IMG/VR virus record: IMGVR_UViG_3300002220_000425
Span: 1,989-65,988 of that record
DNA length: 64,000 nucleotides
Reading direction: 5' to 3' (one strand)
DNA from: a virus
Lineage: Duplodnaviria > Caudoviricetes
The first letter of the stretch is position 1. Each line of letters begins with the position of its first letter. Positions 1 through 63,823 of this stretch are shown in pieces. The position numbers were made by a program, and so were the translations under genes. Below the pieces are notes generated by a model. That model saw only the letters and a list, made by a program, of their open reading frames with translations, was not told where the DNA came from and did no database searches.

Positions 1-129
1 TTGGATCTGGTGATTATCCGTGTTGAACGTGACGACGAATTGATCAGCGATCTTGAAAACCGCTTGAAGCAGTTCGTCGAAGTGATGGAAGCAAAACTCA
101 AGAAGATCAGGGCAAGGGTGAAAGCGTGA
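1..129 (+). CDS. C-terminal end of probable YqaJ/lambda-exonuclease-like protein (5' truncated by window)
   Basis: Frame 1 reads LDLVIIRVERDDELISDLENRLKQF...KA*, typical YqaJ C-terminus; its stop overlaps the start of the SSAP gene. Confidence 0.5.
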   Translation: MDLVIIRVERDDELISDLENRLKQFVEVMEAKLKKIRARVKA

Positions 130-746
130 GCGAGAAACCAGAGGCAGACAATTTGGCGTTGTGGCGCAAGGTCGAGAAAACAGACCCAGCGTTCACCAAA
201 GAAGCGAACAACGGTCGGTTCAAGTTCACCAACGTTGATCCGGCGTACCAGTGCCGTCAGGCTACAGAACTGTGGGGACCGTACGGCGACAAGTGGGGCC
301 TGTACAACCTTGACTTCACAACGCTTGCAAGCGATCCGCCGTCACTGATGTTGCAGGCTGACTTTGCGTATCCCGGCGGCATCGAGCAGTGCAGTTTCCC
401 TATCGCCGTTGACATGAAACTCAAGGCGGGCGACGACATTTGCAAGAAGCTTGTTACATCAGCGATCAGCAAGGCATTGTCCCGGCTTGGGTTTAGCGCG
501 GACGTGTACATGGGCAAGTTTGACGATGCTGCGTACGTCTCCGACCAGAAGATCCGGTCGAGCGAGCAGAAGGAGTTCATGACGAAAGCCCTTGCCCAGA
601 TCAAGAAGGCGACAACCGAAGCTGACCTTGATAAGTGTTCGTCCCGTGTGAACCAATTGATTGCCGGCGACACGCTGGACGAAGCAAATTGGCGTGAGTT
701 GCTCCGTGCGATTGCCGAGCGACGTGAAGCAATCCTGACCGTTTGA
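126..746 (+). CDS. Single-strand annealing protein, Rad52/Sak-like
   Basis: NLALWRKVEKTDPAFTK...VDPAYQ...ATELWGPYG.KWG and ISKALSRLGFSADVYMGKFDD..YV; follows an exonuclease-like gene. Confidence 0.7.
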   Translation: MSEKPEADNLALWRKVEKTDPAFTKEANNGRFKFTNVDPAYQCRQATELWGPYGDKWGLYNLDFTTLASDPPSLMLQADFAYPGGIEQCSFPIAVDMKLKAGDDICKKLVTSAISKALSRLGFSADVYMGKFDDAAYVSDQKIRSSEQKEFMTKALAQIKKATTEADLDKCSSRVNQLIAGDTLDEANWRELLRAIAERREAILTV

Positions 747-753
747 TTTTTCT

Positions 754-783
754 CCTGTAACGTTACAGGCTGAAACGTTTCAC
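754..783. promoter_or_regulatory. Tandem TGWAACGTTWCA palindromes (operator or parS-like)
   Basis: CCTGTAACGTTACAGG (754-769, perfect) followed by CTGAAACGTTTCAC (770-783), intergenic. Confidence 0.75.
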
Positions 784-802
784 CCTCCAACAGAGAGATC
801 CA

Positions 803-2164
803 GTGAGAGTTATTGAATACGAAGTGTTCCACATGATGGGCCTCAAACGCGCCAACCTGAAGATGCCTGACAACGGTATCGTTCTGTTTGGCGGCGAGAA
901 TGGGCATGGCAAGTCGCGATCGATCGACTCGCTGCTGATGGCGTTGTGTGGCAAGTCTGGCATGGATTGGCCGGATGTTGAGCTTGCGGAAGAAGATCGT
1001 GAAGGATGGGTTCGCGTCAAGCTGAGCGGCGATGCTGAACTGCACGACATGGCAGGGTTCACTGTTGAACTGCAACTGAAGAAGCGTCGTGGCAAGTCAA
1101 CGCTTGAGCGGTTCCGCGTTCTGGACTCCACCGGCGATGAGGCGGCAACCCCGCGAGACTTCCTGCAAAAGCTTTACAGCCTTCGTGCGTTAGACCCTCG
1201 TGCGTTGGAGAAAGCCAAGCCCGCTGAGCGTGTTAGGCTGATCAAAGAGTTGGTTGGGCTTGATTTCAGCGCGTTGGACGCTGAACGCGAAGAGGCTTAC
1301 AAGAAGCGAACGGAAGTCAACCGCGACGGCAAGATGTTGCAAGGGCGGCGTACCGGGATCACGTTCCCTGAAGACACTCCCGATGCACTGATTAGCGTTG
1401 TTGAGTTGGTGGACAAGAAAGACAAGGCGATGGCGCACAACCGTGGCGTCGAGGAAGCGGGCAAGAAGCTTGCCAAGCTTGAAGCCAATGATGCGAAGCT
1501 TGCCGAAGAGATTGCCAAGCTGGAAGAACGCTTGCGAGCACTCAAGGATTCACGTGTTGAAAATCAGGAAGCGATCATCCAACAGAAAGCTGTTGTTGAG
1601 AAGTCGCAAATGGTCGATGTCACCGACATTCAGGCGGCAATCGTCAACAGCGAAGCGGTCAACAAGGAAGTGGCCAAGAAGCTTGAGGCAATGCGTATCG
1701 ACAAAGAGTTGCATGCCCTTGAGGTCGAAAGCCAGAAGCTTACCGACAAGATTGCACGCATCGACAACGAGAAGCAGCGGCGATTGGAGTCTGCCAAGTG
1801 GCCGTTACCAAACATGTCGCTTGATGATTCGGGCGTGTTGCTTGACGGGCTCCCGTTTGAGCAGGCCAGCGCAGCACAGCGGTTGATTGCCAGCGTCAAG
1901 GTCGGCATGGCGTTGAACCCCAAGCTGAAGTTGTTTGTTTCGAAGGACGGCAACGACTTGGATAACAACACGTTGCTTGAGCTTGACAAGATCCTCAAAG
2001 AGAACGGCTACCAGATGATTCTGGAGTTCGTCACTCGCAGCAATGCGGACGAATCGCGGTGTGCGGTGGTGTTCAAAAATGGAACGCAGGTTGGCTTGGC
2101 TGAGGAACCTGAGTTTGATGACGTTTCAGTGGACGCAGAGCAGGGCGGTTCTGAGGCAGAGTAG
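803..2164 (+). CDS. SMC/Rad50-like coiled-coil ATPase
   Basis: Walker A GENGHGKS near N-terminus, long central coiled coil, degenerate signature ASAAQR and C-terminal KDGNDLD. Confidence 0.8.
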   Translation: MRVIEYEVFHMMGLKRANLKMPDNGIVLFGGENGHGKSRSIDSLLMALCGKSGMDWPDVELAEEDREGWVRVKLSGDAELHDMAGFTVELQLKKRRGKSTLERFRVLDSTGDEAATPRDFLQKLYSLRALDPRALEKAKPAERVRLIKELVGLDFSALDAEREEAYKKRTEVNRDGKMLQGRRTGITFPEDTPDALISVVELVDKKDKAMAHNRGVEEAGKKLAKLEANDAKLAEEIAKLEERLRALKDSRVENQEAIIQQKAVVEKSQMVDVTDIQAAIVNSEAVNKEVAKKLEAMRIDKELHALEVESQKLTDKIARIDNEKQRRLESAKWPLPNMSLDDSGVLLDGLPFEQASAAQRLIASVKVGMALNPKLKLFVSKDGNDLDNNTLLELDKILKENGYQMILEFVTRSNADESRCAVVFKNGTQVGLAEEPEFDDVSVDAEQGGSEAE

Positions 2165-54231: not shown

Positions 54232-54241
54232 AGGCAAGTAA

Positions 54242-57200
54242 ATGTCTGAGATCCTTCGTTCAATCAATCCGGCAATGGCAAACCTGTTATTGCCAGCCGC
54301 CCCCGCTGCGATTCGCCCTGCCAGTCGTCGCCGCGAACCCGCGCCCTACGTGGACGAGGAAGAAGAACGAACGCTTGCCGGTAGCTTGCGAGACAAGTCG
54401 CTAACAACGATCGGCGCGGTCGGCAACTTGCTTGACCTTCCCGGCAGTATGGTCCGAGACGTTGGTTCTTCGATCGTCCAAGGCAAGTTCGTCAATCCTT
54501 TTGATCAACTGTTGTCGCCGCTTTCAGCAGACAACCGAACAACCGGGAAGGATCTTCTGCGGCAAACAGGAATCGTGGACGACGCCGATACGTGGGGCAA
54601 TGCGATTGCTGGCTTTGGTGCTGAAGTCGCGATGGACCCGCTGACGTACATGACGTTTGGCGGAAGTGCATTAGGAAAGTCTGGTCAACTCGCAAGTAAA
54701 GCAGGTCTACTTGACGAACTTGGAAGCGTTGCAGCGCGCAAGGCCGGCAAGCAGGTCGGTCAGGTTGGATCACGCGAAGCAAGGCTTACTACCACGCTTG
54801 CGGACGTTGCACAGTACGGCACGGAACGGTCTGCCGCAAAGGCAAAGCAGATCCTTAAAGACAGTCCAGATCTTGCCGACGAGGCGTTTGGTGGACTTGC
54901 TGGATTCGGGTTGCCATTTATGCAGCCGATGGCGATTGCCGGCCAGGGTGCCAAGAGTCAGGCTGTGGCAAGAGGATTGGACACGGCGGGCAGGACAGTG
55001 CGCTACGGCAAGATTCCAGGCACGGAGTTCCAGCCTGTCAACTCGCTTCTCAATCTGTTTGACGCTCCCGCAATGGGCACGAAGTCTCCGATGTGGCAGG
55101 CGATCGCGCGTCACAAGTCACGGCAGAAGGACGTGAAGTCTGCTGACGTGTTGATGGATACCAATCGCTGGGCCACCGAACTGGAGCAAGCGGGGCTTGT
55201 AGGGCAGGATGCAGCCGACATGCTGCGCGACGGGCTAGAAGGTGTTGTGCCAATCGATAGCCTTCCTGACGCCATGCAGCCGATAGCAAGGCAGATGCGG
55301 GCACAGAGCGCTGAAATGCCGGCACGCGGTCGGGTAGATGGAGTGCAGATAACGGAACTCACGGACGACGAGATTGACTATGCCGCAAGATTCTTGGTTG
55401 CCACACGTGGGATTCACGGCAAGCGATCCAAGGCAGTGTTTACTGCGGACGATCCTTCCAACCAGGGACGCAAAGACTTTATGCGTAACGTTCCAGGCGG
55501 AACAAACAAGCTAAAGCGAGAACTGTTTCTTGATGACGCAATCAACGCAGCAGTGGACAATGGTTCTGATGTTGACACCATTCGCAAAATGATGGAGGCC
55601 AAGGCGAACGGCTGGCTGCCAGATACGTTCAAAGAGTTCAACCCCAAGGCCGAAGGTGCAGTTGATGGATGGGTAGTCAAGGAAGGGCGATACCAAAAGA
55701 TTGCGGAATGGTTTGGTGGTTTGTCCAAAGAAACCCGAGAAGCGGGCGTGTTCGGCAATCACCCGATCCTTGACCACACAGCCAGAAGGATGGCGTTCGA
55801 GGACTCCATCAATGCAACCGAAACAGTTGCGATGGCGTTGAGTCAGCCGAAGATTCTGTTGCCTCCAAGTGCTGCCGCCAACGTCGCAGCAGACGGATCG
55901 ATGACGGTTGGCGAAGTGCTTGCCAAGCTGAAGATGGACCTTGGCGATGTCAACGGCGGGCTTGGTCGCAAGATCATGAAGTCGAAAGGGATGGCACCCG
56001 ACGACGACTCGATCAAGGCTCTGCGTGACAGGCGACTGTCCAAAGAGAACGCCGAAGAACTCATGTCGATCCACAGGACAATAAGCGGTCCTGACGCGAT
56101 CAATGATCTTATCGGCATGATGGACTCGGTGGTGAACTACTCCAAGGGGATGTGGACAAGCGTGTGGCCAGCGTTCCACGTGCGAAACCGCATATCGGGT
56201 GCGCTCCAAAACATGGCACTGGGCATTTGGAGCAAGGAGGGTGACACGTGGGCCGATCAATTGCTCAAGGGCAAGGTGATTGAGGGTGCAGCCAAGGAAC
56301 CGTGGGTGCGTGCTGTCTGGGAGCGAGAGCAGGCAGAGCTTGCGAGGATCAACGCTTTAACGCCACCGGGCGGTGCTGCTCCAGGACCAGGGCAACCACC
56401 GGGACCGGGCGGACAAATGCCAGGTCAACCGGGTGCAGGTGTATCGCCAACCATGGCAACGCCAACAGGCGAGTTCGTTGAGATCGACGGGGTTGCCCGC
56501 CCGACAGTTGACAGCAACGGCAAACCGATCCACACAACCGAAGAGGGTGTTCGTAACTTCTGGAGTGCGTTTAGGGACAGCAAACTTGTTGACGATCAGG
56601 GCAGGCCGATTCCGATTTACCACGGAACTAGAAGTGCAGACCTTGGAACTGCGGCAGCAAAGGATCGAAACAGAAAGATCGACCAAGCCAAGTTGTCGCT
56701 CGATGAATGGAATGCAGCCCACAAGCAATCGTATTCTGACCTGAGTACTCAGCGATACAGCGCAATCGAAGCGGAGGCAGACGCACATGACCGAATCGCT
56801 TCGTTGCTTAAAAGCAATCGCGCTGCAAGCAGCGCAACCAAAGCTAGTTCGTGGCAATCCTTTTCAGAAAGCGTTAAGGCTGACGTTTCTCCTGAAACCT
56901 GGAGGGCAGTAGACAAGGGGCTGTTAAAGCAAGAGTTCGACCGGCTTCAGTTGGCAAAGCGTGAAGCAGAGTCGATCCAAGAACGCCTTGATCAAATACC
57001 CAAGAAACCTTCAAGCAGCTTGGCGACTGCAACGAAAGGAAGCGAGGCGGCAGTATTTGACACAATGCGATATGGAGAAAACGACACCGGCTACCTTTCC
57101 GCTGGTACGTACTTCACCAAGAACGCCGAGCTATCTGGAAACTATGCGGGTGCTGGAGAAGGTGCTGGCGTAATCCCAGTTTATGCTAACCTGAAAAACC

Positions 57201-60200
57201 CGTTCGTTCATGGCGTCACAAACGACCCAAGAATTGACGAAATGGTGAACGCAACAGTCGCGGAGATGCACGAAAGAATCAGAGCGGCACGCGGCAGTGT
57301 TGACGACTACTCTCGCGCAAACTCTCTTGCAAGGCGAAAGGTTCTTGAAGACCTTGGCTACGATGGCGAGATTTACGAAAGGGGCGTTGCCAATGCCGCT
57401 GGCGTTGCAAGGCGAGACTTGGCCGAATCCGAAGTTGTTGTGTTTCAGCCTGAGCAAGTCAAGTCTGCCATTGGAAACCGTGGTACGTTTGATCCAGGCT
57501 CGCCAGACATCATGGCAACGCCAAGCGATGCGTTTGATGCGGATTTTGCAAACGCGGCTGGCAAAACTGCGCGTCCATGGAAAATGACAACCACGTACAG
57601 ACAAGCTTCGTCTTTGGTGAGGCCAGGCATGAAAGTCGTGGACTATGGATCCGGTCCATACCAGAATATCAGGCAAACAATTGTTGACGCTGGTGGTGAG
57701 TACACGCCATTTGACCGCTATGGGAACATCGGAAAGATCGAAGACATCGGGAACGCAGATATTGTGATGGGCAGTAATGTGCTCAATACGGCAGTTTATG
57801 CAAGCGATCCTGAGCAGGCGTATTATGCGGCACTGGAAGAAATGGCAGGGGCACTCAAGCCAGACGGTAAGCTTGTGGTCAACATGCCAACCAGCGGCCC
57901 AATGGCAGACTGGATGACGCCCAAGAGGCTCAAAGAAGATCTTGAGCAGATGTTTGAGTCAGTGTCCCGAAAGGGCGAGGTGTTCACGGCATCGGGCGCG
58001 AAGGTTCAGGGTGGGGGTTTTGCAGACGAGTTGCGCAAGATCCCAGGGCATATTCGCGACAATCCATCACTGCAAGATCAGGAAGCACTTAGAAGGGCTG
58101 CCAGGCACGACATCCGAAGCGGGAATGGTCTAAGAAGGGCCATGGAAGATGTTATCAGCGGAACGTCGCCTCCAAAGAGTGCCAACGTGTCGGTGTACGA
58201 GGATCGACTGAAGGCATGGACGATTCTTGATGAGCTTGATAAGTCACCGCTGGTTGAGGTTCCGCTTTATCGAGGGGAAAGAGCGGTTACGGCGGGTGTT
58301 GATAATCGCAATGTAAGCGTCGGGGACCGGATTTTGCTTGGCGGCAAGATTGCCAGTACAGGCATCACGAGCAAGCGTAATGTGGCTGAGCATTTTGCCG
58401 GTGGAGTCATTTACGAAATCGAGCCTGGCGCAAAGGCATTGCGGGTCAGCACTGGGCCTGATGTTCCGTTTTCAAAGTCAATCGCTGGTGAAGAAGAGTT
58501 CCTAGCCACTGGCAAGTTTGAGGTTACTGATGTCCAGGATCTAGGCGATCAGCGAATCATCAAGGTCAGACACGTCGAACCAGCGAGCATCCCTAGGCCG
58601 GTCGCTCAGGGTCAACTGCGTCAAGGGTCGATTGCCACCGGCAACCGTGGCACGTTTGATCCAGGCTCGCCAGACATCATGGCAACGCCGATCGACCGCA
58701 CTCCACCACGGTCCTTGTATCGCCAAGCAGATGCCATGGAGGCCCTTGCTGCAATGGACCCCGGCAGGCAGATCGTTGGTGATGGTCCGGCTGGCGCGAT
58801 GGAGAGACACTTTACTGACAATCCTGATCTTGCTTTAGGCCAAGGAAGGAACGCAGATGGAGTGCTGATGGAGTTTGCTGACGATTTTGGTGCTAAGGCA
58901 CAAAACACTGCCGGATACGCAGTTTCGGCAGCAATGGGCAAGGGTGGATCATTTGTTGCGCCAGTTAATCCAAGCAGTCTTGCTCGACATTTGCGATCGG
59001 CTACTTTCCCAAGCGAAAAGGACGTGCCGCGATACATGATGTCGCAGGAATGGCTAGACGAATCTGGCTTTGCTATGAGAAGGCTGGATAGCGGCCAAGT
59101 AGAGTTCAGAAAACAGGAGCCTTTGCCGTTAGACGAACCTGGCCAAACGCTTGATTCCGTTGGCCCTACACCAAAAGAAGCACGCGAACTTGCCAAGGCG
59201 TTGAAGCCCGCCGCGATACCCAAGGTTGGCAACCAAGAGATCAACAAGTGGACCGAAGAACAAATCAATTGGGTGAAAGACCCCAAGAACTTCAAGGCAC
59301 TGAGCCCGCAGCACGAGAAGCTGAACGGGTTCTTGGATTACTTCGTCGCCAAGAAAGCGATCAAGCCCGAAGACGCCGACATCCTGCGAATCATCTACTC
59401 GCAGACGGATGCACGGTACTTGCCGGATGAAGTCAATGCGGGACGTGTGCTCAAGACGCAGCAAGGCAATAAAGTCACGGGAGCACTGGGGTTTGCCGAA
59501 GCACAACAGTGGCACCCGAAAGACAGAGTGAGCTTGTTGTCGAAGGCTCGCAAGGGATCGCGCGATCAATCGTCAGCGTACAACGAAGGCACGCGGGTGA
59601 TGCTGCACGAGCTTGGGCACATCGTTTACTTTGCCGCATTGCGCAGTAACGATCCGGCACAGTTGGCAGTCTTGCGTGAGTTCCACAATCTTGCAGGGAC
59701 CGCTGGAAAGCCGACTTTCATTGACGAGTTCATGTCGGGCGGCAACACGAAGTTTCAGGCCGAGTATCACGCGGGCGCGTCGAAGCATAAGAACAACCTG
59801 ACGAACCCTGAACGGGAGCAGTTTGCGGAGTTCTTTGCGCATTCGATCATGCGTCGAAAGATTCCCACGGGCGCGTTTGGCCAGGTCATCACCAAGGCTC
59901 TTGATTGGCTAAGGCTGCAACTCTCTAAGCTTGCCAGCGTAACCGGGCTTCAACCGTCAGTTCGCCAGCGTCTTGACGAGATCATGGACGAGCTTGGCGG
60001 GTTCAACAATGCACCTGATCTGTCTGCAACGTTGCAGGGTGGACGGCGCGCTGGGAAGCAAGGCGGGCAGCAAGTTCCACCAACCGGCCAAGTGCCACCC
60101 CAAGTACCAGGCCAAGCTCCACCGGGACAACCGCCAGTTGCCCCACCGGGACAGGGCGTTGCGCCGGGTGGGCCAGTACCAGGACCGCCAGCGCCATCGG

Positions 60201-61534
60201 GACCGCCAGTGCTCACCGACGAAGAGGCCACGCGAATTATCGGGCGAATGGCAGCTAGCCAGGGTGTGGTTGGCAAGTTCGAGGGGAACGCAACGTCGAT
60301 CATTGGACAACCAACAGGTCAGTCCGGAGATTTGATGGACACGCTTTCGGGCATACCGCGACCAGGCAATCAGCAGATATCAGCAGGCAGGGTTGCGCGT
60401 AAGGCTGTAGGCATGGAACCGGGAACCAGCCTGAATCCAATTGACGTTCGCGGCGTAGGCGGGCGAGAGGAAAGCGGGTTTGGTATTGCGGCGGCAGGGG
60501 AGGAAATCGGCAACTACATCGAAGGCATGAACCGACTTGGCCCGTGGATCACGATGATGAAACGCGGGTACGATCCGGCAGAAGCATCCAAGAAGGCGGG
60601 TGCTGCTCAGGTGCTCTACGGCAACAAGAATTACACGCCATTTGAACAGCAAGTGATGGCACGGCTGTTTCCATTCTACAAATTTTCTCGCGGGTCCATG
60701 CCGGTCGTTGCTCGGAACCTGATGGAGAAACCGGGTGGAATGTACGGCACGATCATCAAGGGAAACAACCGTGCTCAAGGTGATGGTGAACTTGCTCCTG
60801 ATTACGTTCGGGACACGGCAAACATTCCCGTTGACCGAAACAACCCGATCTTGTCAGCGATCGCAGGAACGCCACCAGAGGGCACTGATCGCTACATCAC
60901 GGGCTTTGGTCTGATGCACGAGGACTTAATGGGCTTTGGTCCGTCAGTGCGTGGTGCTGGGCTCGAAGCATTGTCCAGAATGAACCCATTCATTAAGGGG
61001 CCGCTGGAGTGGTCAACCGGGCAAACGTTCTTCCAGAGGGGACCAGAAGGTGGTCGCGACCTGGACAAGCTTGACCCAACCATTGGTCGTCTTGTCGCCA
61101 ACGTCATGGGGCAGACAGAACCGGACGATTCCAAGAAGTTCCCGTTGTGGATGGAGCAGATTGTCGCGAACTCACCGATTGCCCGAGCAACAACCACAGC
61201 GAGATCGCTCACTGATCCACGCAAGCGATCCGAAACAGTGCCGGGAATGCCGGGTGCTGCGTCGTTGCTCAACACGCTTACCGGGTTCCGTGTTTCGGAC
61301 GTGTCGCCAGCAAGCAAAGACGCAATCTTGCGGGAAATGCTCAATTCTGAAATGCAGGATGCGGGTGCTTCAGTGTTCGAGCGAGTGTACTTCAGCAAGG
61401 AGGAACTCGACAAAATGTCTCCCGCAGCAAGGGAGAATGCGATCAAGCTCCAGGGACTGGCCAACGTGCTTGCACAGCGATCTAAGGAACGCAAGGCACA
61501 GCGACAAGCAGAGGAAGCGAAGAAAGGCAAATGA
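54242..61534 (+). CDS. Large polyvalent (DarB/ejection-type) protein, 2430 aa: ART-like, SAM-MTase, RSE-type ART, zincin protease
   Basis: IYHGT...AGTYFT; VVDYGSG; LYRG...STG...EEEFL; VMLHELGH...EQFAE. Confidence 0.8.
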   Translation: MSEILRSINPAMANLLLPAAPAAIRPASRRREPAPYVDEEEERTLAGSLRDKSLTTIGAVGNLLDLPGSMVRDVGSSIVQGKFVNPFDQLLSPLSADNRTTGKDLLRQTGIVDDADTWGNAIAGFGAEVAMDPLTYMTFGGSALGKSGQLASKAGLLDELGSVAARKAGKQVGQVGSREARLTTTLADVAQYGTERSAAKAKQILKDSPDLADEAFGGLAGFGLPFMQPMAIAGQGAKSQAVARGLDTAGRTVRYGKIPGTEFQPVNSLLNLFDAPAMGTKSPMWQAIARHKSRQKDVKSADVLMDTNRWATELEQAGLVGQDAADMLRDGLEGVVPIDSLPDAMQPIARQMRAQSAEMPARGRVDGVQITELTDDEIDYAARFLVATRGIHGKRSKAVFTADDPSNQGRKDFMRNVPGGTNKLKRELFLDDAINAAVDNGSDVDTIRKMMEAKANGWLPDTFKEFNPKAEGAVDGWVVKEGRYQKIAEWFGGLSKETREAGVFGNHPILDHTARRMAFEDSINATETVAMALSQPKILLPPSAAANVAADGSMTVGEVLAKLKMDLGDVNGGLGRKIMKSKGMAPDDDSIKALRDRRLSKENAEELMSIHRTISGPDAINDLIGMMDSVVNYSKGMWTSVWPAFHVRNRISGALQNMALGIWSKEGDTWADQLLKGKVIEGAAKEPWVRAVWEREQAELARINALTPPGGAAPGPGQPPGPGGQMPGQPGAGVSPTMATPTGEFVEIDGVARPTVDSNGKPIHTTEEGVRNFWSAFRDSKLVDDQGRPIPIYHGTRSADLGTAAAKDRNRKIDQAKLSLDEWNAAHKQSYSDLSTQRYSAIEAEADAHDRIASLLKSNRAASSATKASSWQSFSESVKADVSPETWRAVDKGLLKQEFDRLQLAKREAESIQERLDQIPKKPSSSLATATKGSEAAVFDTMRYGENDTGYLSAGTYFTKNAELSGNYAGAGEGAGVIPVYANLKNPFVHGVTNDPRIDEMVNATVAEMHERIRAARGSVDDYSRANSLARRKVLEDLGYDGEIYERGVANAAGVARRDLAESEVVVFQPEQVKSAIGNRGTFDPGSPDIMATPSDAFDADFANAAGKTARPWKMTTTYRQASSLVRPGMKVVDYGSGPYQNIRQTIVDAGGEYTPFDRYGNIGKIEDIGNADIVMGSNVLNTAVYASDPEQAYYAALEEMAGALKPDGKLVVNMPTSGPMADWMTPKRLKEDLEQMFESVSRKGEVFTASGAKVQGGGFADELRKIPGHIRDNPSLQDQEALRRAARHDIRSGNGLRRAMEDVISGTSPPKSANVSVYEDRLKAWTILDELDKSPLVEVPLYRGERAVTAGVDNRNVSVGDRILLGGKIASTGITSKRNVAEHFAGGVIYEIEPGAKALRVSTGPDVPFSKSIAGEEEFLATGKFEVTDVQDLGDQRIIKVRHVEPASIPRPVAQGQLRQGSIATGNRGTFDPGSPDIMATPIDRTPPRSLYRQADAMEALAAMDPGRQIVGDGPAGAMERHFTDNPDLALGQGRNADGVLMEFADDFGAKAQNTAGYAVSAAMGKGGSFVAPVNPSSLARHLRSATFPSEKDVPRYMMSQEWLDESGFAMRRLDSGQVEFRKQEPLPLDEPGQTLDSVGPTPKEARELAKALKPAAIPKVGNQEINKWTEEQINWVKDPKNFKALSPQHEKLNGFLDYFVAKKAIKPEDADILRIIYSQTDARYLPDEVNAGRVLKTQQGNKVTGALGFAEAQQWHPKDRVSLLSKARKGSRDQSSAYNEGTRVMLHELGHIVYFAALRSNDPAQLAVLREFHNLAGTAGKPTFIDEFMSGGNTKFQAEYHAGASKHKNNLTNPEREQFAEFFAHSIMRRKIPTGAFGQVITKALDWLRLQLSKLASVTGLQPSVRQRLDEIMDELGGFNNAPDLSATLQGGRRAGKQGGQQVPPTGQVPPQVPGQAPPGQPPVAPPGQGVAPGGPVPGPPAPSGPPVLTDEEATRIIGRMAASQGVVGKFEGNATSIIGQPTGQSGDLMDTLSGIPRPGNQQISAGRVARKAVGMEPGTSLNPIDVRGVGGREESGFGIAAAGEEIGNYIEGMNRLGPWITMMKRGYDPAEASKKAGAAQVLYGNKNYTPFEQQVMARLFPFYKFSRGSMPVVARNLMEKPGGMYGTIIKGNNRAQGDGELAPDYVRDTANIPVDRNNPILSAIAGTPPEGTDRYITGFGLMHEDLMGFGPSVRGAGLEALSRMNPFIKGPLEWSTGQTFFQRGPEGGRDLDKLDPTIGRLVANVMGQTEPDDSKKFPLWMEQIVANSPIARATTTARSLTDPRKRSETVPGMPGAASLLNTLTGFRVSDVSPASKDAILREMLNSEMQDAGASVFERVYFSKEELDKMSPAARENAIKLQGLANVLAQRSKERKAQRQAEEAKKGK
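57476..58689 (+). repeat. 47-bp direct repeat (38 bp identical) at 57476-57522 and 58643-58689
   Basis: ACGTTTGATCCAGGCTCGCCAGACATCATGGCAACGCC twice, 1167 bp (389 codons) apart. Confidence 0.9.
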
Positions 61535-61631
61535 AGTTTTGCCGCTGGTGTTGTAACTGATATCGCCAATAGCTAAAGTGGTGTGAGGTTACAGCCTGTA
61601 ACGTTTCAGGGTTCCATTCTGAGGTGATGCC

Positions 61632-62234
61632 GTGTCTACTGGCCGAGTCAATATCAGTTATCGAGTTGGTGGTGCAGTAGTCGATGCACAGATCGATCGT
61701 GAGGACGAACAAGGGGCGGCAACCCTGGTGCCGTTGCCTGCCGGGATTGCTGGCACGCTCACCACACGAACCGATGCCGACACCGGGGTCGTCACGGTCC
61801 TTGCTGGTCACGGGATTACCACGTCCGACACGGTAACGCTGTTCTGGGCGGGCGGTGTTCGGCGCGGGCTTACGGTCACTGCAACAGCCGCAACCACCAT
61901 TTCGATTGACGTTGGCGCTGGTGCAGACCTGCCTGCTGTCAGTTCGGTTGTTACGATTGCCAAAGAGGTGATCACGTCGCTAGGGCACATTGGCAACGAT
62001 TTGGCAATCTTTGCCGTCCATAGCGTGAACCGCTTGATGGCAAACATTCGAGACGCTGTTCCTGCAACCATCCTAGCTTTGGATATCACAGGGCGTGAGT
62101 CGTTTGCCTATATCTCAACCTTCAGCGGCACTAATCCGTTTGCCGGTGAAACGCTTGTAACTGCGGTGCTTGCCAATGGTGGGACCACTCCAGCGACAGC
62201 AACAATCCTGCACTTGAAAGACACGATCGTTTAA
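61632..62234 (+). CDS. Hypothetical beta-rich protein
   Basis: 200 aa T/A/G/V-rich; GAGGTG SD. Confidence 0.65.
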   Translation: MSTGRVNISYRVGGAVVDAQIDREDEQGAATLVPLPAGIAGTLTTRTDADTGVVTVLAGHGITTSDTVTLFWAGGVRRGLTVTATAATTISIDVGAGADLPAVSSVVTIAKEVITSLGHIGNDLAIFAVHSVNRLMANIRDAVPATILALDITGRESFAYISTFSGTNPFAGETLVTAVLANGGTTPATATILHLKDTIV

Positions 62235-62274
62235 TCGTGGCTTGTTAGATACATTCAACAATTAGGGTTCGATT

Positions 62275-62490
62275 ATGAATTGGTTGGTCATTGTCCGCAT
62301 GATCTTGGAAATCATTGCGATGCTTCCGAAAGACGCCGACGATGCGACGATTGAAAGCGTCGTTGAGACTGCGGTTTCGGATTGTGTTGGAAACGAACCC
62401 GCCGCACAGTCTGACGATTGGCAGGAGCTTATTCCGCACATCGTGGCGATCGTCAAGTTCTTGCTAAAAAAGTTCGGGCCGTCACTGTGA
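62275..62490 (+). CDS. Small amphipathic protein, possible holin-like
   Basis: Two hydrophobic helices flanking an acidic loop, 71 aa. Confidence 0.4.
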   Translation: MNWLVIVRMILEIIAMLPKDADDATIESVVETAVSDCVGNEPAAQSDDWQELIPHIVAIVKFLLKKFGPSL

Positions 62491-62846
62491 ACGAACTGTT
62501 TGACCTTCACAACGCCGAACGTTTAAGCCGTGGCTTGCCTGCCATGGAACAGAACGATCGGCTAAACGCCGCTGCCCAGAAGCATGCCGATTGGATGCGA
62601 TCGAGGCGGCGAATGTCGCACCGCGGGGCGGGCTTTTCATCGCCTGCACAGCGAATTGCGGCTGAAGGTTATCGGTTTTCATCGGTGGCAGAGAACATTG
62701 CCGCTGGCCAAACGTCAGCGGCGCAGGTCATGAATGCGTGGATGCGTTCACGCGGGCACCGAAACAACATCCTTGGACGCAACCGGGAGATCGGCTTAGG
62801 TCGGTCTGGAAACTACTGGTGCGTTGTTTTTGGCACTCAGAGGTAA
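62487..62846 (+). CDS. CAP/SCP domain protein
   Basis: LHNAER...L..AAQKHA..M...MSH, AENIAAG, WMRSRGHRNNIL, EIGLG. Confidence 0.9.
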   Translation: MNELFDLHNAERLSRGLPAMEQNDRLNAAAQKHADWMRSRRRMSHRGAGFSSPAQRIAAEGYRFSSVAENIAAGQTSAAQVMNAWMRSRGHRNNILGRNREIGLGRSGNYWCVVFGTQR

Positions 62847-62848
62847 CT

Positions 62849-63823
62849 ATGACCGCTGCGTATGACCTGGCGTTTGAATACGATCCACCAGTGGGTTTGC
62901 CGCCAGACTTGGTTGATGAGCATGAAGACTTCACGCTCATGTCCGAAGCGGCGCCCATTGTGTGGCACTTCCCAAGGCCGTTGTGGGAACCGATCTGGAA
63001 GAAAGGCTTTACGGGCAAGGGTGAAAGGATTGCGATCCTCGACACGGGTTGCAATGCTCACGCGCTCCTGCCGACACCCGTAGCCGAAAGGTCTTTCATC
63101 AGTGGCCAGTCCCCGCGTGACCCACGATCAGGACACGGCACTCACTGTGCGGGAACTGCTCTCGGTAGGGGCGGGATCGGTGCAGCGTGCGAGGCTGAAT
63201 TGCTTGTTGGCAAGGTGCTGAGCGATGGCGGAAGCGGTTCGAGTTCAGGGATTGCAGCCGGTATCAATTGGGCGATTGATCAGGGTGCAACGATCATCAG
63301 CATGAGTTTGGGTGGTGGATCCTCGTACGAACCAACACGGCGAGCGATTCAAAGGGCAAACGAAGCGGGGATCTTGGTGTGTGCGAGTGCAGGCAACAGT
63401 GGCCAGCGGCTCCCGCGTAACACAATCGGTTTCCCCGGTCGGCACCTTGAATCCTATTGTTCTGGTTCAATGGACCAACAGGGCCGAATCTCTTCGTTCA
63501 GTTCGGCGGGTCGCGAGATGGACGGTGTTACACCGGGCTCGCAGATTGTTTCTTGCAGCAATGGCAACCGCAATGGATACCGCACGATGAGCGGGACCAG
63601 CATGAGTTGCCCGTTCGCTGCTGGCTTGTTCGCTTGCGTGCGAACCGGCATGGCAATGGCAGGCTTGCCAAGGCTTGGCGGTATCGACGATTGGCGTCCA
63701 TGGCTACAGCGTTTCTTTATCGACCAAGGGCCAAGCGGTCACGATCCGACGTGGGGCTGGGGAATACCAGACTACCGCAAGATCGTTGACATGATGGCAC
63801 AACCACAGGTGAAGTTCGTATGA
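62849..63823 (+). CDS. S8 subtilisin-like serine protease
   Basis: Triad motifs ILDTG, HGTHCAG, MSGTSMSCP; oxyanion SAGN. Confidence 0.95.
   Translation: MTAAYDLAFEYDPPVGLPPDLVDEHEDFTLMSEAAPIVWHFPRPLWEPIWKKGFTGKGERIAILDTGCNAHALLPTPVAERSFISGQSPRDPRSGHGTHCAGTALGRGGIGAACEAELLVGKVLSDGGSGSSSGIAAGINWAIDQGATIISMSLGGGSSYEPTRRAIQRANEAGILVCASAGNSGQRLPRNTIGFPGRHLESYCSGSMDQQGRISSFSSAGREMDGVTPGSQIVSCSNGNRNGYRTMSGTSMSCPFAAGLFACVRTGMAMAGLPRLGGIDDWRPWLQRFFIDQGPSGHDPTWGWGIPDYRKIVDMMAQPQVKFV

Follow-up and report, generated by a model that had tools for sequence, protein, structure and literature searches.

The locus described here raises the question of how a giant multidomain phage protein can change its set of enzymatic modules and still keep its reading frame. 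The window, i.e. the whole stretch of DNA that was analysed, comprises 64,000 nucleotides (nt) of a virus of the Caudoviricetes (Duplodnaviria; positions 1,989 to 65,988 of IMG/VR record IMGVR_UViG_3300002220_000425), and its source contig of 65,988 bp was rated 99% complete. According to the list of open reading frames (ORFs) and their translations, the window encodes a phage-type polyvalent protein of 2430 amino acids (aa) (P0001; 54242..61534, + strand, as are all features below). An initial annotation made from the sequence alone had described a direct repeat within this ORF that brackets a methyltransferase-like and an ADP-ribosyltransferase (ART)-like domain, and had interpreted the repeated peptide as a linker that works as a plug-in site for swapping injected effectors. 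Our analysis leads us to regard P0001 as probably a polyvalent protein with a swappable in-frame cassette, made by recombination in a recent event at the tail of its ART-PolyVal domain. The exchangeable cassette of the initial annotation was thus upheld, including the existence of a swap allele, but the dedicated linker or plug-in site was not, because the tail is conserved as a peptide and not as DNA.

A repeat search recovered the direct repeat as two copies of 63 nt (57466-57528 and 58633-58695) which are 90% identical, differing at 6 of 63 positions, and whose starts lie 1167 bp or 389 codons apart, in agreement with the spacing and the 38 identical base pairs noticed before. The exact run of 38 nt spans 57485-57522 in the first and 58652-58689 in the second copy. 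Both copies lie in the frame of ORF 54242-61534 and encode the same 16-residue peptide NRGTFDPGSPDIMATP (57476-57523 and 58643-58690), with 46 of 48 nt identical. There were only two copies in the whole contig; a weaker, partial third copy of the joint, encoding PTMATP (56447-56464), is located ahead of the ART-PolyVal domain. As the spacing is divisible by three, deletion or addition of the segment at the repeat would preserve the reading frame, as had been proposed. Identical codons were found at 14 of 16 positions between the copies where 6.4 were expected, and the probability of 14 or more, computed from identical peptides and the codon usage of this phage, was about 3e-5.

The repeated peptide proved to be something other than the generic linker it had been taken for. 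Aligned with its homologues, it is identified as the C-terminal tail of the ART-PolyVal domain (PF18760), with copy 1 as the native tail of the first ART of P0001 (ART1, 56453..57475). PF18760 matched ART1 with 79-87 bits (cut-off 31.2) over residues 934-1083, and the last profile position was reached at F1083, inside repeat copy 1. Across 120 giant homologues the tail follows the consensus Q-I-K-S-A-x-G-N-x-G-x-F-D-x-x-x-P-D-I-R-[F/Y]-S and occurs up to eight times per protein. Of these tails 147 of 157 were preceded by a segment which, with the motif itself excluded, fell into one homology cluster that includes ART1, and all 22 tail-bearing segments taken from five genes matched PF18760. In an AlphaFold2 model of ART1 with its tail, K-S-A is predicted to close the last strand and the repeated peptide to form a coil, with confidence falling from ~74 to ~40. 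ART1 would belong to the HYD2 clade, since its candidate catalytic motifs IYHGT (56615-56629), GTYFT (57104-57118) and SEVVVF (57428-57445) align with the YHGT, F/Y and strand-5 columns of 21 other units and give the H-Y-D/E pattern. Between its H and Y motifs ART1 also carries an insert of ~130 aa (56630-57100), absent from the 21 other aligned ART-PolyVal units and modelled as long helices (segment residues 63-176).

Copy 2 stands apart from the rest of the family. Among the 157 tails it is the only one without the preceding F-x-P-x-Q-I-K-S-A strand, being truncated at G-N. Together with VAQGQLRQGSIAT ahead of it, copy 2 forms an orphan tail (58601..58690), upstream of which there was no ART-PolyVal match; instead an unrelated domain precedes it. 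VAQGQLRQGSIAT is similar to an extended tail that one ART-PolyVal unit of the homologue P0151 carries, and copy 2 looks like a recombination scar. Two other views of the tail were rejected. A role as general punctuation after any module was discarded as ART-PolyVal precedes nearly every case, and the M of MATP as the start codon of once-separate genes was discarded as this position holds R/L in the family consensus D-I-R-[F/Y]-S and no ribosome-binding sequence lies ahead of it.

The closest relative of P0001 is P0002 (2473 aa), encoded at loci L003 and L004 on contigs from three samples, two of which are identical over the gene. DNA homology between the window and L003 extends over 54239-57528, halts at the end of copy 1 and, after a non-homologous stretch, resumes at 59141. 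A separate match of 74 nt (94.6% identity) pairs copy 2 and the adjoining IDRTPP joint of the window with the single tail of the P0002 gene. In a three-way alignment this single tail of L003 combines the left flank of copy 1 with the right flank of copy 2. Relative to L003 the window therefore carries an in-frame, repeat-bracketed insert of 1167 bp, or else L003 carries the matching deletion. Downstream of IDRTPP the two phages differ again: the window encodes module X (~150 aa; joint and module at 58691..59155), and P0002 has modules Y and Z, with another ATPIDRTPP (an exact match of 17 nt) between them. Module Y is itself bracketed in L003 by a direct repeat encoding ATPIDRTPP. None of the modules X, Y and Z belongs to a Pfam family, and module X had neither a Pfam match nor a homologue among the fetched proteins. 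In the more distant orthologues P0003, P0012 and P0013, which share the N- and C-terminal frame, the tail is followed within 15-36 residues by the zincin module, leaving an empty slot. P0001 and P0002 thus agree in their flanks but not in the module that is found at a conserved junction motif, so that the occurrence of different domains at the same position in homologues, which had been suggested as a check of the plug-in idea, is indeed seen in P0002, next to three homologues with nothing there.

The comparison with L003 further showed that P0001 is a mosaic. In a pairwise DNA alignment with sliding identity, the N-terminal carrier frame (54242..56377, common to P0002, P0003, P0012 and P0013) was ~70% identical to L003, and identity rose to ~95% within a Pro/Gly/Gln-rich linker (linker 1, 56378..56452). 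It was 95-98% in ART1, absent in the slot and 92-97% in the zincin-like metallopeptidase module, which starts at the SVGPT joint (59156..60046). Within a second, Pro/Gly-rich linker (linker 2, 60047..60230) identity dropped back to ~70%, and the C-terminal carrier frame (60231..61534, common to P0002, P0003, P0005, P0012, P0013 and P0093) was ~70-79% identical. Identity at four-fold sites was 0.47 in the N-terminal frame, 0.91 in ART1, 0.83 in the zincin module and 0.38 in the C-terminal frame; the contrast between the high values of the payload and the low values of the frame reflects recombination rather than mere constraint. Boundary alignment placed the outer mosaic switches in the two Pro/Gly-rich linkers and the inner ones at the tail and at the S-V-G-P-T joint. 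The ends of the carrier frame are near silent-site saturation relative to L003, while identity reaches 83-97% in ART1, in the zincin module and in the genes that follow position 61536.

Whether the tail is conserved as DNA or as a peptide was seen from four other genes with 3-8 tails each. In three of these multi-tail genes the identical codons between tails amounted to 39 vs 31.5, 150 vs 124 and 219 vs 166 expected, and exact runs were mostly 5-15 nt with a longest run of 20 nt, compared with 38 nt in the window. The fourth gene contains whole modules that were recently duplicated. Codon identity close to expectation elsewhere implies that the tail is kept for a protein-level reason and that the DNA identity in the window marks a recent event, in line with the earlier reading of the silent sites. 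Most likely, then, judging from these alignments, the tail exists for a reason at the protein level and recombination merely makes use of it.

The content of the cassette (405 residues) had been described as one module, and here a point had been missed: it consists of two separate modules that are apart in every other protein found. In a full-library HMMER search residues 17-178 were recovered in 30-odd proteins and residues 176-378 in six others, and no hit carried both. The first is a class I S-adenosylmethionine (SAM) methyltransferase module (57524..58006; motif I VVDYGSG at 57635-57655, LKPDG at 57854-57868) with 32 homologues, which occur as solo proteins of 158-217 aa or at varied places in other giant proteins. 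AlphaFold2 modelled cassette residues 20-178 with a predicted local distance difference test score (pLDDT) above 90, and the best Foldseek matches of this model were FtsJ/RrmJ (2nyu, 1eiz; probability 1.00) and many class I SAM methyltransferases. D56, G58 and G60 are nearly invariant among 25 homologues. Among curated families the best Pfam match was NNMT_PNMT_TEMT (E 0.053, below the cut-off), and NCBIfam gave no match. The methyltransferase-like domain of the initial annotation is thereby confirmed at the level of the predicted fold. The small family to which it belongs is marked by an N-terminal K-T-A-R-P-W-K motif and is covered by no Pfam family.

The second module (ART2, 58007..58600, including an N-terminal helical part) is a probable R-S-E ADP-ribosyltransferase. 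Its motifs occur in the expected order (LYRG at 58265-58276, STGIT at 58355-58369, EEE at 58490-58498), and the LYRG, S/T-G-I/L-T-S/T and E-x-E-F/H columns are conserved across 7 homologues, which have neither the methyltransferase nor the tail. ESM Atlas neighbours carried PF03496 (ADPrib_exo_Tox) at 0.95 with 173-184 shared features, which we treat as a lead only. Of the earlier R-S-E assignment the motifs thus stood, now together with this language-model match, but profile searches and structure modelling added nothing to it. A word-index search with ART2 alone returned no solo homologues, and a PDB sequence search with the cassette gave noise only (E 0.5-1). Hits from a PDB profile search were discarded, as they could be traced to a PolyA_pol domain, unrelated to the module, that one homologue had brought into the alignment. 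An origin of ART1 and ART2 as tandem paralogues was also rejected, as they belong to different ART clades and have just the tail in common. The R-S-E ART clade was absent from genuine polyvalent proteins in a survey from 2017 (PMC5512222); ART2 suggests that ARTs of this type do occur within polyvalent proteins.

From these observations the following history may be proposed. In P0001 both termini would belong to a carrier frame, and the region between the two Pro/Gly-rich linkers would form the payload, in which a variable slot separates ART-PolyVal from the zincin peptidase. The 1167-bp piece, which encodes the unrelated methyltransferase and R-S-E-like ART, would owe its in-frame position, with the native tail on one side and a truncated second tail on the other, to a recent recombination with tail-coding DNA as the homology, either as an insertion here or as a mirror-image deletion in the relative. 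The perfect repeat of 38 bp would leave the cassette poised for a precise in-frame loss. The peptide itself is probably an exit or processing segment of the ART domain, so that its use as a recombination joint would be a by-product and not a dedicated function. A gene for a YqaJ-type recombination exonuclease is located just upstream of the window (G000:C1:1500-1943), and its presence makes recombination on short homology plausible in this phage.

Several points weigh against this proposal. The cassette junctions of P0001 are known from a single contig. The protein collections contained no exact 1167-bp deletion allele (ART1-tail-IDRTPP-module X), the form that the initial annotation had suggested looking for in raw reads or related contigs, and no further alleles. 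Scans of viral and of metagenome contigs with a degenerate DNA pattern for FDPGSPDIMATP had no hits either; as L003 was not returned, it may be absent from these collections, or near relatives may be hidden in them. A search of viral contigs for related loci found none. The known alleles are two with payload and three empty, and the notion of a 'hot' joint rests on few events. ART2 had no Pfam or PDB profile match, and its part of the AlphaFold2 model is of low confidence. Finally, insertion and deletion are indistinguishable from the data, as are double crossover, circle integration and gene conversion.

A different emphasis would be to see the tail, with its ending [M/S]-[A/V]-[T/G]-P, mainly as a proteolytic processing site, at which the zincin or a downstream S8 peptidase would cut the joints and release the modules. 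The second tail would then have been kept as the cassette's own cut site and recombination would be secondary; this is compatible with the history proposed above and adds a function to it. The pattern [M/S][A/V][T/G]P occurs exactly four times each in P0001 (window 56453-56464, 57512-57523, 58679-58690 and 59156-59167) and P0002 (residues 744, 1097, 1215 and 1691), in both only at module borders, where shuffled sequences gave a mean of ~0.35. These statistics are optimistic, since the pattern was chosen with the sequences already in view. In the cassette model both tail copies are disordered, with pLDDT values below 50; throughout the family it is the peptide of the tail and not its DNA that is conserved; an HExxH module is present in every orthologue; and Iyer et al. 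proposed that metallopeptidase domains split polyvalent proteins into units (PMC5512222). However, no such motif separates the methyltransferase from ART2, and the site is not uniform, since most of the family has R-[F/Y]-S at the equivalent position. Peptide conservation alone also leaves the 38-nt DNA identity unexplained. On balance we consider it unlikely that processing is the main role of the tail.

The tail might also serve two purposes, its peptide being a zincin cut site that frees the modules after delivery and its DNA a portable homology for trading in-frame cassettes among co-infecting phages. We think this combination doubtful. If true, it would represent a phage counterpart of the MARTX/Rhs toxin architecture, with every payload border in the lineage marked by one motif.

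The plug-in idea in its strong form holds that the linker was selected as a dedicated site, its DNA kept uniform so as to favour the exchange of cassettes, much as at the attachment site of an integron. It would account for break-points relative to the relative at the tail and related short joints, and for the direct repeats that bracket modules in both phages. Yet codon identity between tails is near expectation in the genes with 3-8 tails, except for the one with recently duplicated modules; moreover almost all tails close an ART-PolyVal domain instead of following modules of any kind, the tail has no associated site-specific recombinase, and the mosaic has its outer boundaries in Pro/Gly-rich linkers that are unrelated to the tail. 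We therefore regard a dedicated exchange site as improbable.

An independent contig of 5019 bp (L005, JGI 3300000558), 100% identical to window 58678-63696, bears on the assembly. It begins inside copy 2, 11 nt before the point where the repeat copies diverge, so at least one assembly graph breaks in copy 2, a break that a genuine two-copy repeat, a mixed population or faulty assembly could each explain. Repeats of 38-47 nt are shorter than normal reads and than the large k-mers of current assemblers. That the 38-nt repeat let the assembler thread the methyltransferase-ART piece from a co-occurring phage into a truly L003-like junction (ART1-tail-IDRTPP) is improbable: P0001 is on one contig only, a graph branches where L005 starts and the L003-type junction exists in nature, but the repeat arms differ at 6 of 63 positions with distinct flanks, the tail remnant (VAQGQLR...) before copy 2 is continuous with ART2, the cassette agrees in base composition with the payload modules next to it, and a contig break is also expected at a genuine two-copy repeat.

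The setting of the giant gene is consistent with its proposed nature. As in polyvalent proteins generally, a number of unrelated domains with enzymatic or effector roles are joined in the single long chain of P0001, and its gene adjoins virion genes, with the large terminase, a tail protein and an SU10-type portal all upstream. By analogy with the family, the virion would contain P0001 and pass it into the host along with the DNA. ART-PolyVal was the only Pfam family found in P0001 (E 6e-22), and NCBIfam had no match for P0001 or P0002. In a blastn search of the giant gene against 50,697 phage records there was no match, and tblastn against phage records gave just weak ART matches, to phage F116 and phage Tunturi_5. 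In the zincin module the motif HELGH (59606-59620; residues 1789-1793) is an HExxH motif kept in P0002, P0003, P0012 and P0013; the sister P0002 has HELAH (residue 1841 region) vs HELGH in P0001, with HExxH intact in both. The module had no profile match to an MPTase-PolyVal family, and residues 1468-1886 were without a Pfam match even at E 10. The C-terminal carrier frame is possibly LPD38-like: its ESM Atlas neighbours are viral, and LPD38 occurs in 10% of the members of one cluster (a lead only).

A Peptidase_S8/protease gene, a candidate for an alternative processing enzyme, is conserved downstream at a distance of two or three genes from the giant gene. In the window this is ORF 62738-63823, which matches a PHROG protease family (E 1e-48), and its counterparts on L003 (12937-13911) and L004 were called Peptidase_S8 (subtilase). 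A neighbouring ORF of 200 aa had no Pfam match. At the other end of the window (126-2164) the YqaJ gene is followed by an ORF of 206 aa of unknown function and by a protein of 453 aa with weak, below-threshold matches to the P-loop ATPase AAA_23. The YqaJ gene and these two ORFs may constitute a phage recombination module, in which no annealing protein was recognised.

The architecture of P0001 has parallels outside phages. In MARTX toxins of Vibrio, recombination reshuffles arrays of effector domains, which an internal protease sets free. P0001 resembles them in having conserved carrier ends around a central series of exchangeable enzyme modules, a protease within the chain and short sites between the modules; unlike them it is presumably a virion-associated protein of a phage and not a secreted bacterial toxin, its protease is of a different type, and its processing and delivery are only presumed. 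In CdiA and Rhs proteins a conserved VENN or DPxGL junction motif is both a domain border and the homology for replacement of the toxin tip. Here, too, a short conserved peptide motif marks the border at which variable modules would be swapped by homologous recombination, but the module of P0001 is internal and not C-terminal, and its motif belongs to an enzyme domain, ART-PolyVal. Nor were immunity genes or orphan cassettes noticed close to the locus, where no search of the downstream ORFs aimed at orphan modules was made. An analogy of polyvalent proteins with polymorphic toxins was drawn before (PMC5512222). Phage T4 packages the R-S-E ART Alt in its head and injects it (PMC5512222). ART2 is likewise a phage-carried ART of the R-S-E type, presumably for early modification of host proteins; Alt differs in being a separate protein with a capsid-targeting leader, whereas ART2 is one cassette of a polyprotein and just a probable member of the family.

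The closest precedent is the survey of polyvalent proteins by Iyer, Burroughs, Anand, de Souza and Aravind (2017), who proposed accretion from solo modules, processing by metallopeptidases and possible recombinational cassettes (PMC5512222). Like the proteins described there, P0001 is a giant polypeptide that unites ART-PolyVal and a zincin-like peptidase with further enzymes, and its gene is located among those of the virion. Its small 'TARPWK' methyltransferase differs from the DarB-type adenine methylase-helicase pair of those proteins. Linkers are not mentioned in the survey, nor is the ART tail discussed there as a joint. The concept that modules are reshuffled by ordinary recombination is already known, and the present locus is a clear and well-documented example of it, not an unprecedented one.

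Polyvalent proteins are thought to be the toolkits that a phage delivers first, and the rapid change of their domain sets has been mostly inferred from domain architectures. The locus described here offers a dated, base-level footprint of one such change, with a cassette between a native and an orphan tail, a sister with other modules in the same place and older relatives in which the slot is empty. The conservation of the tail as a peptide throughout the family further points to a testable protein-level role, possibly in processing.

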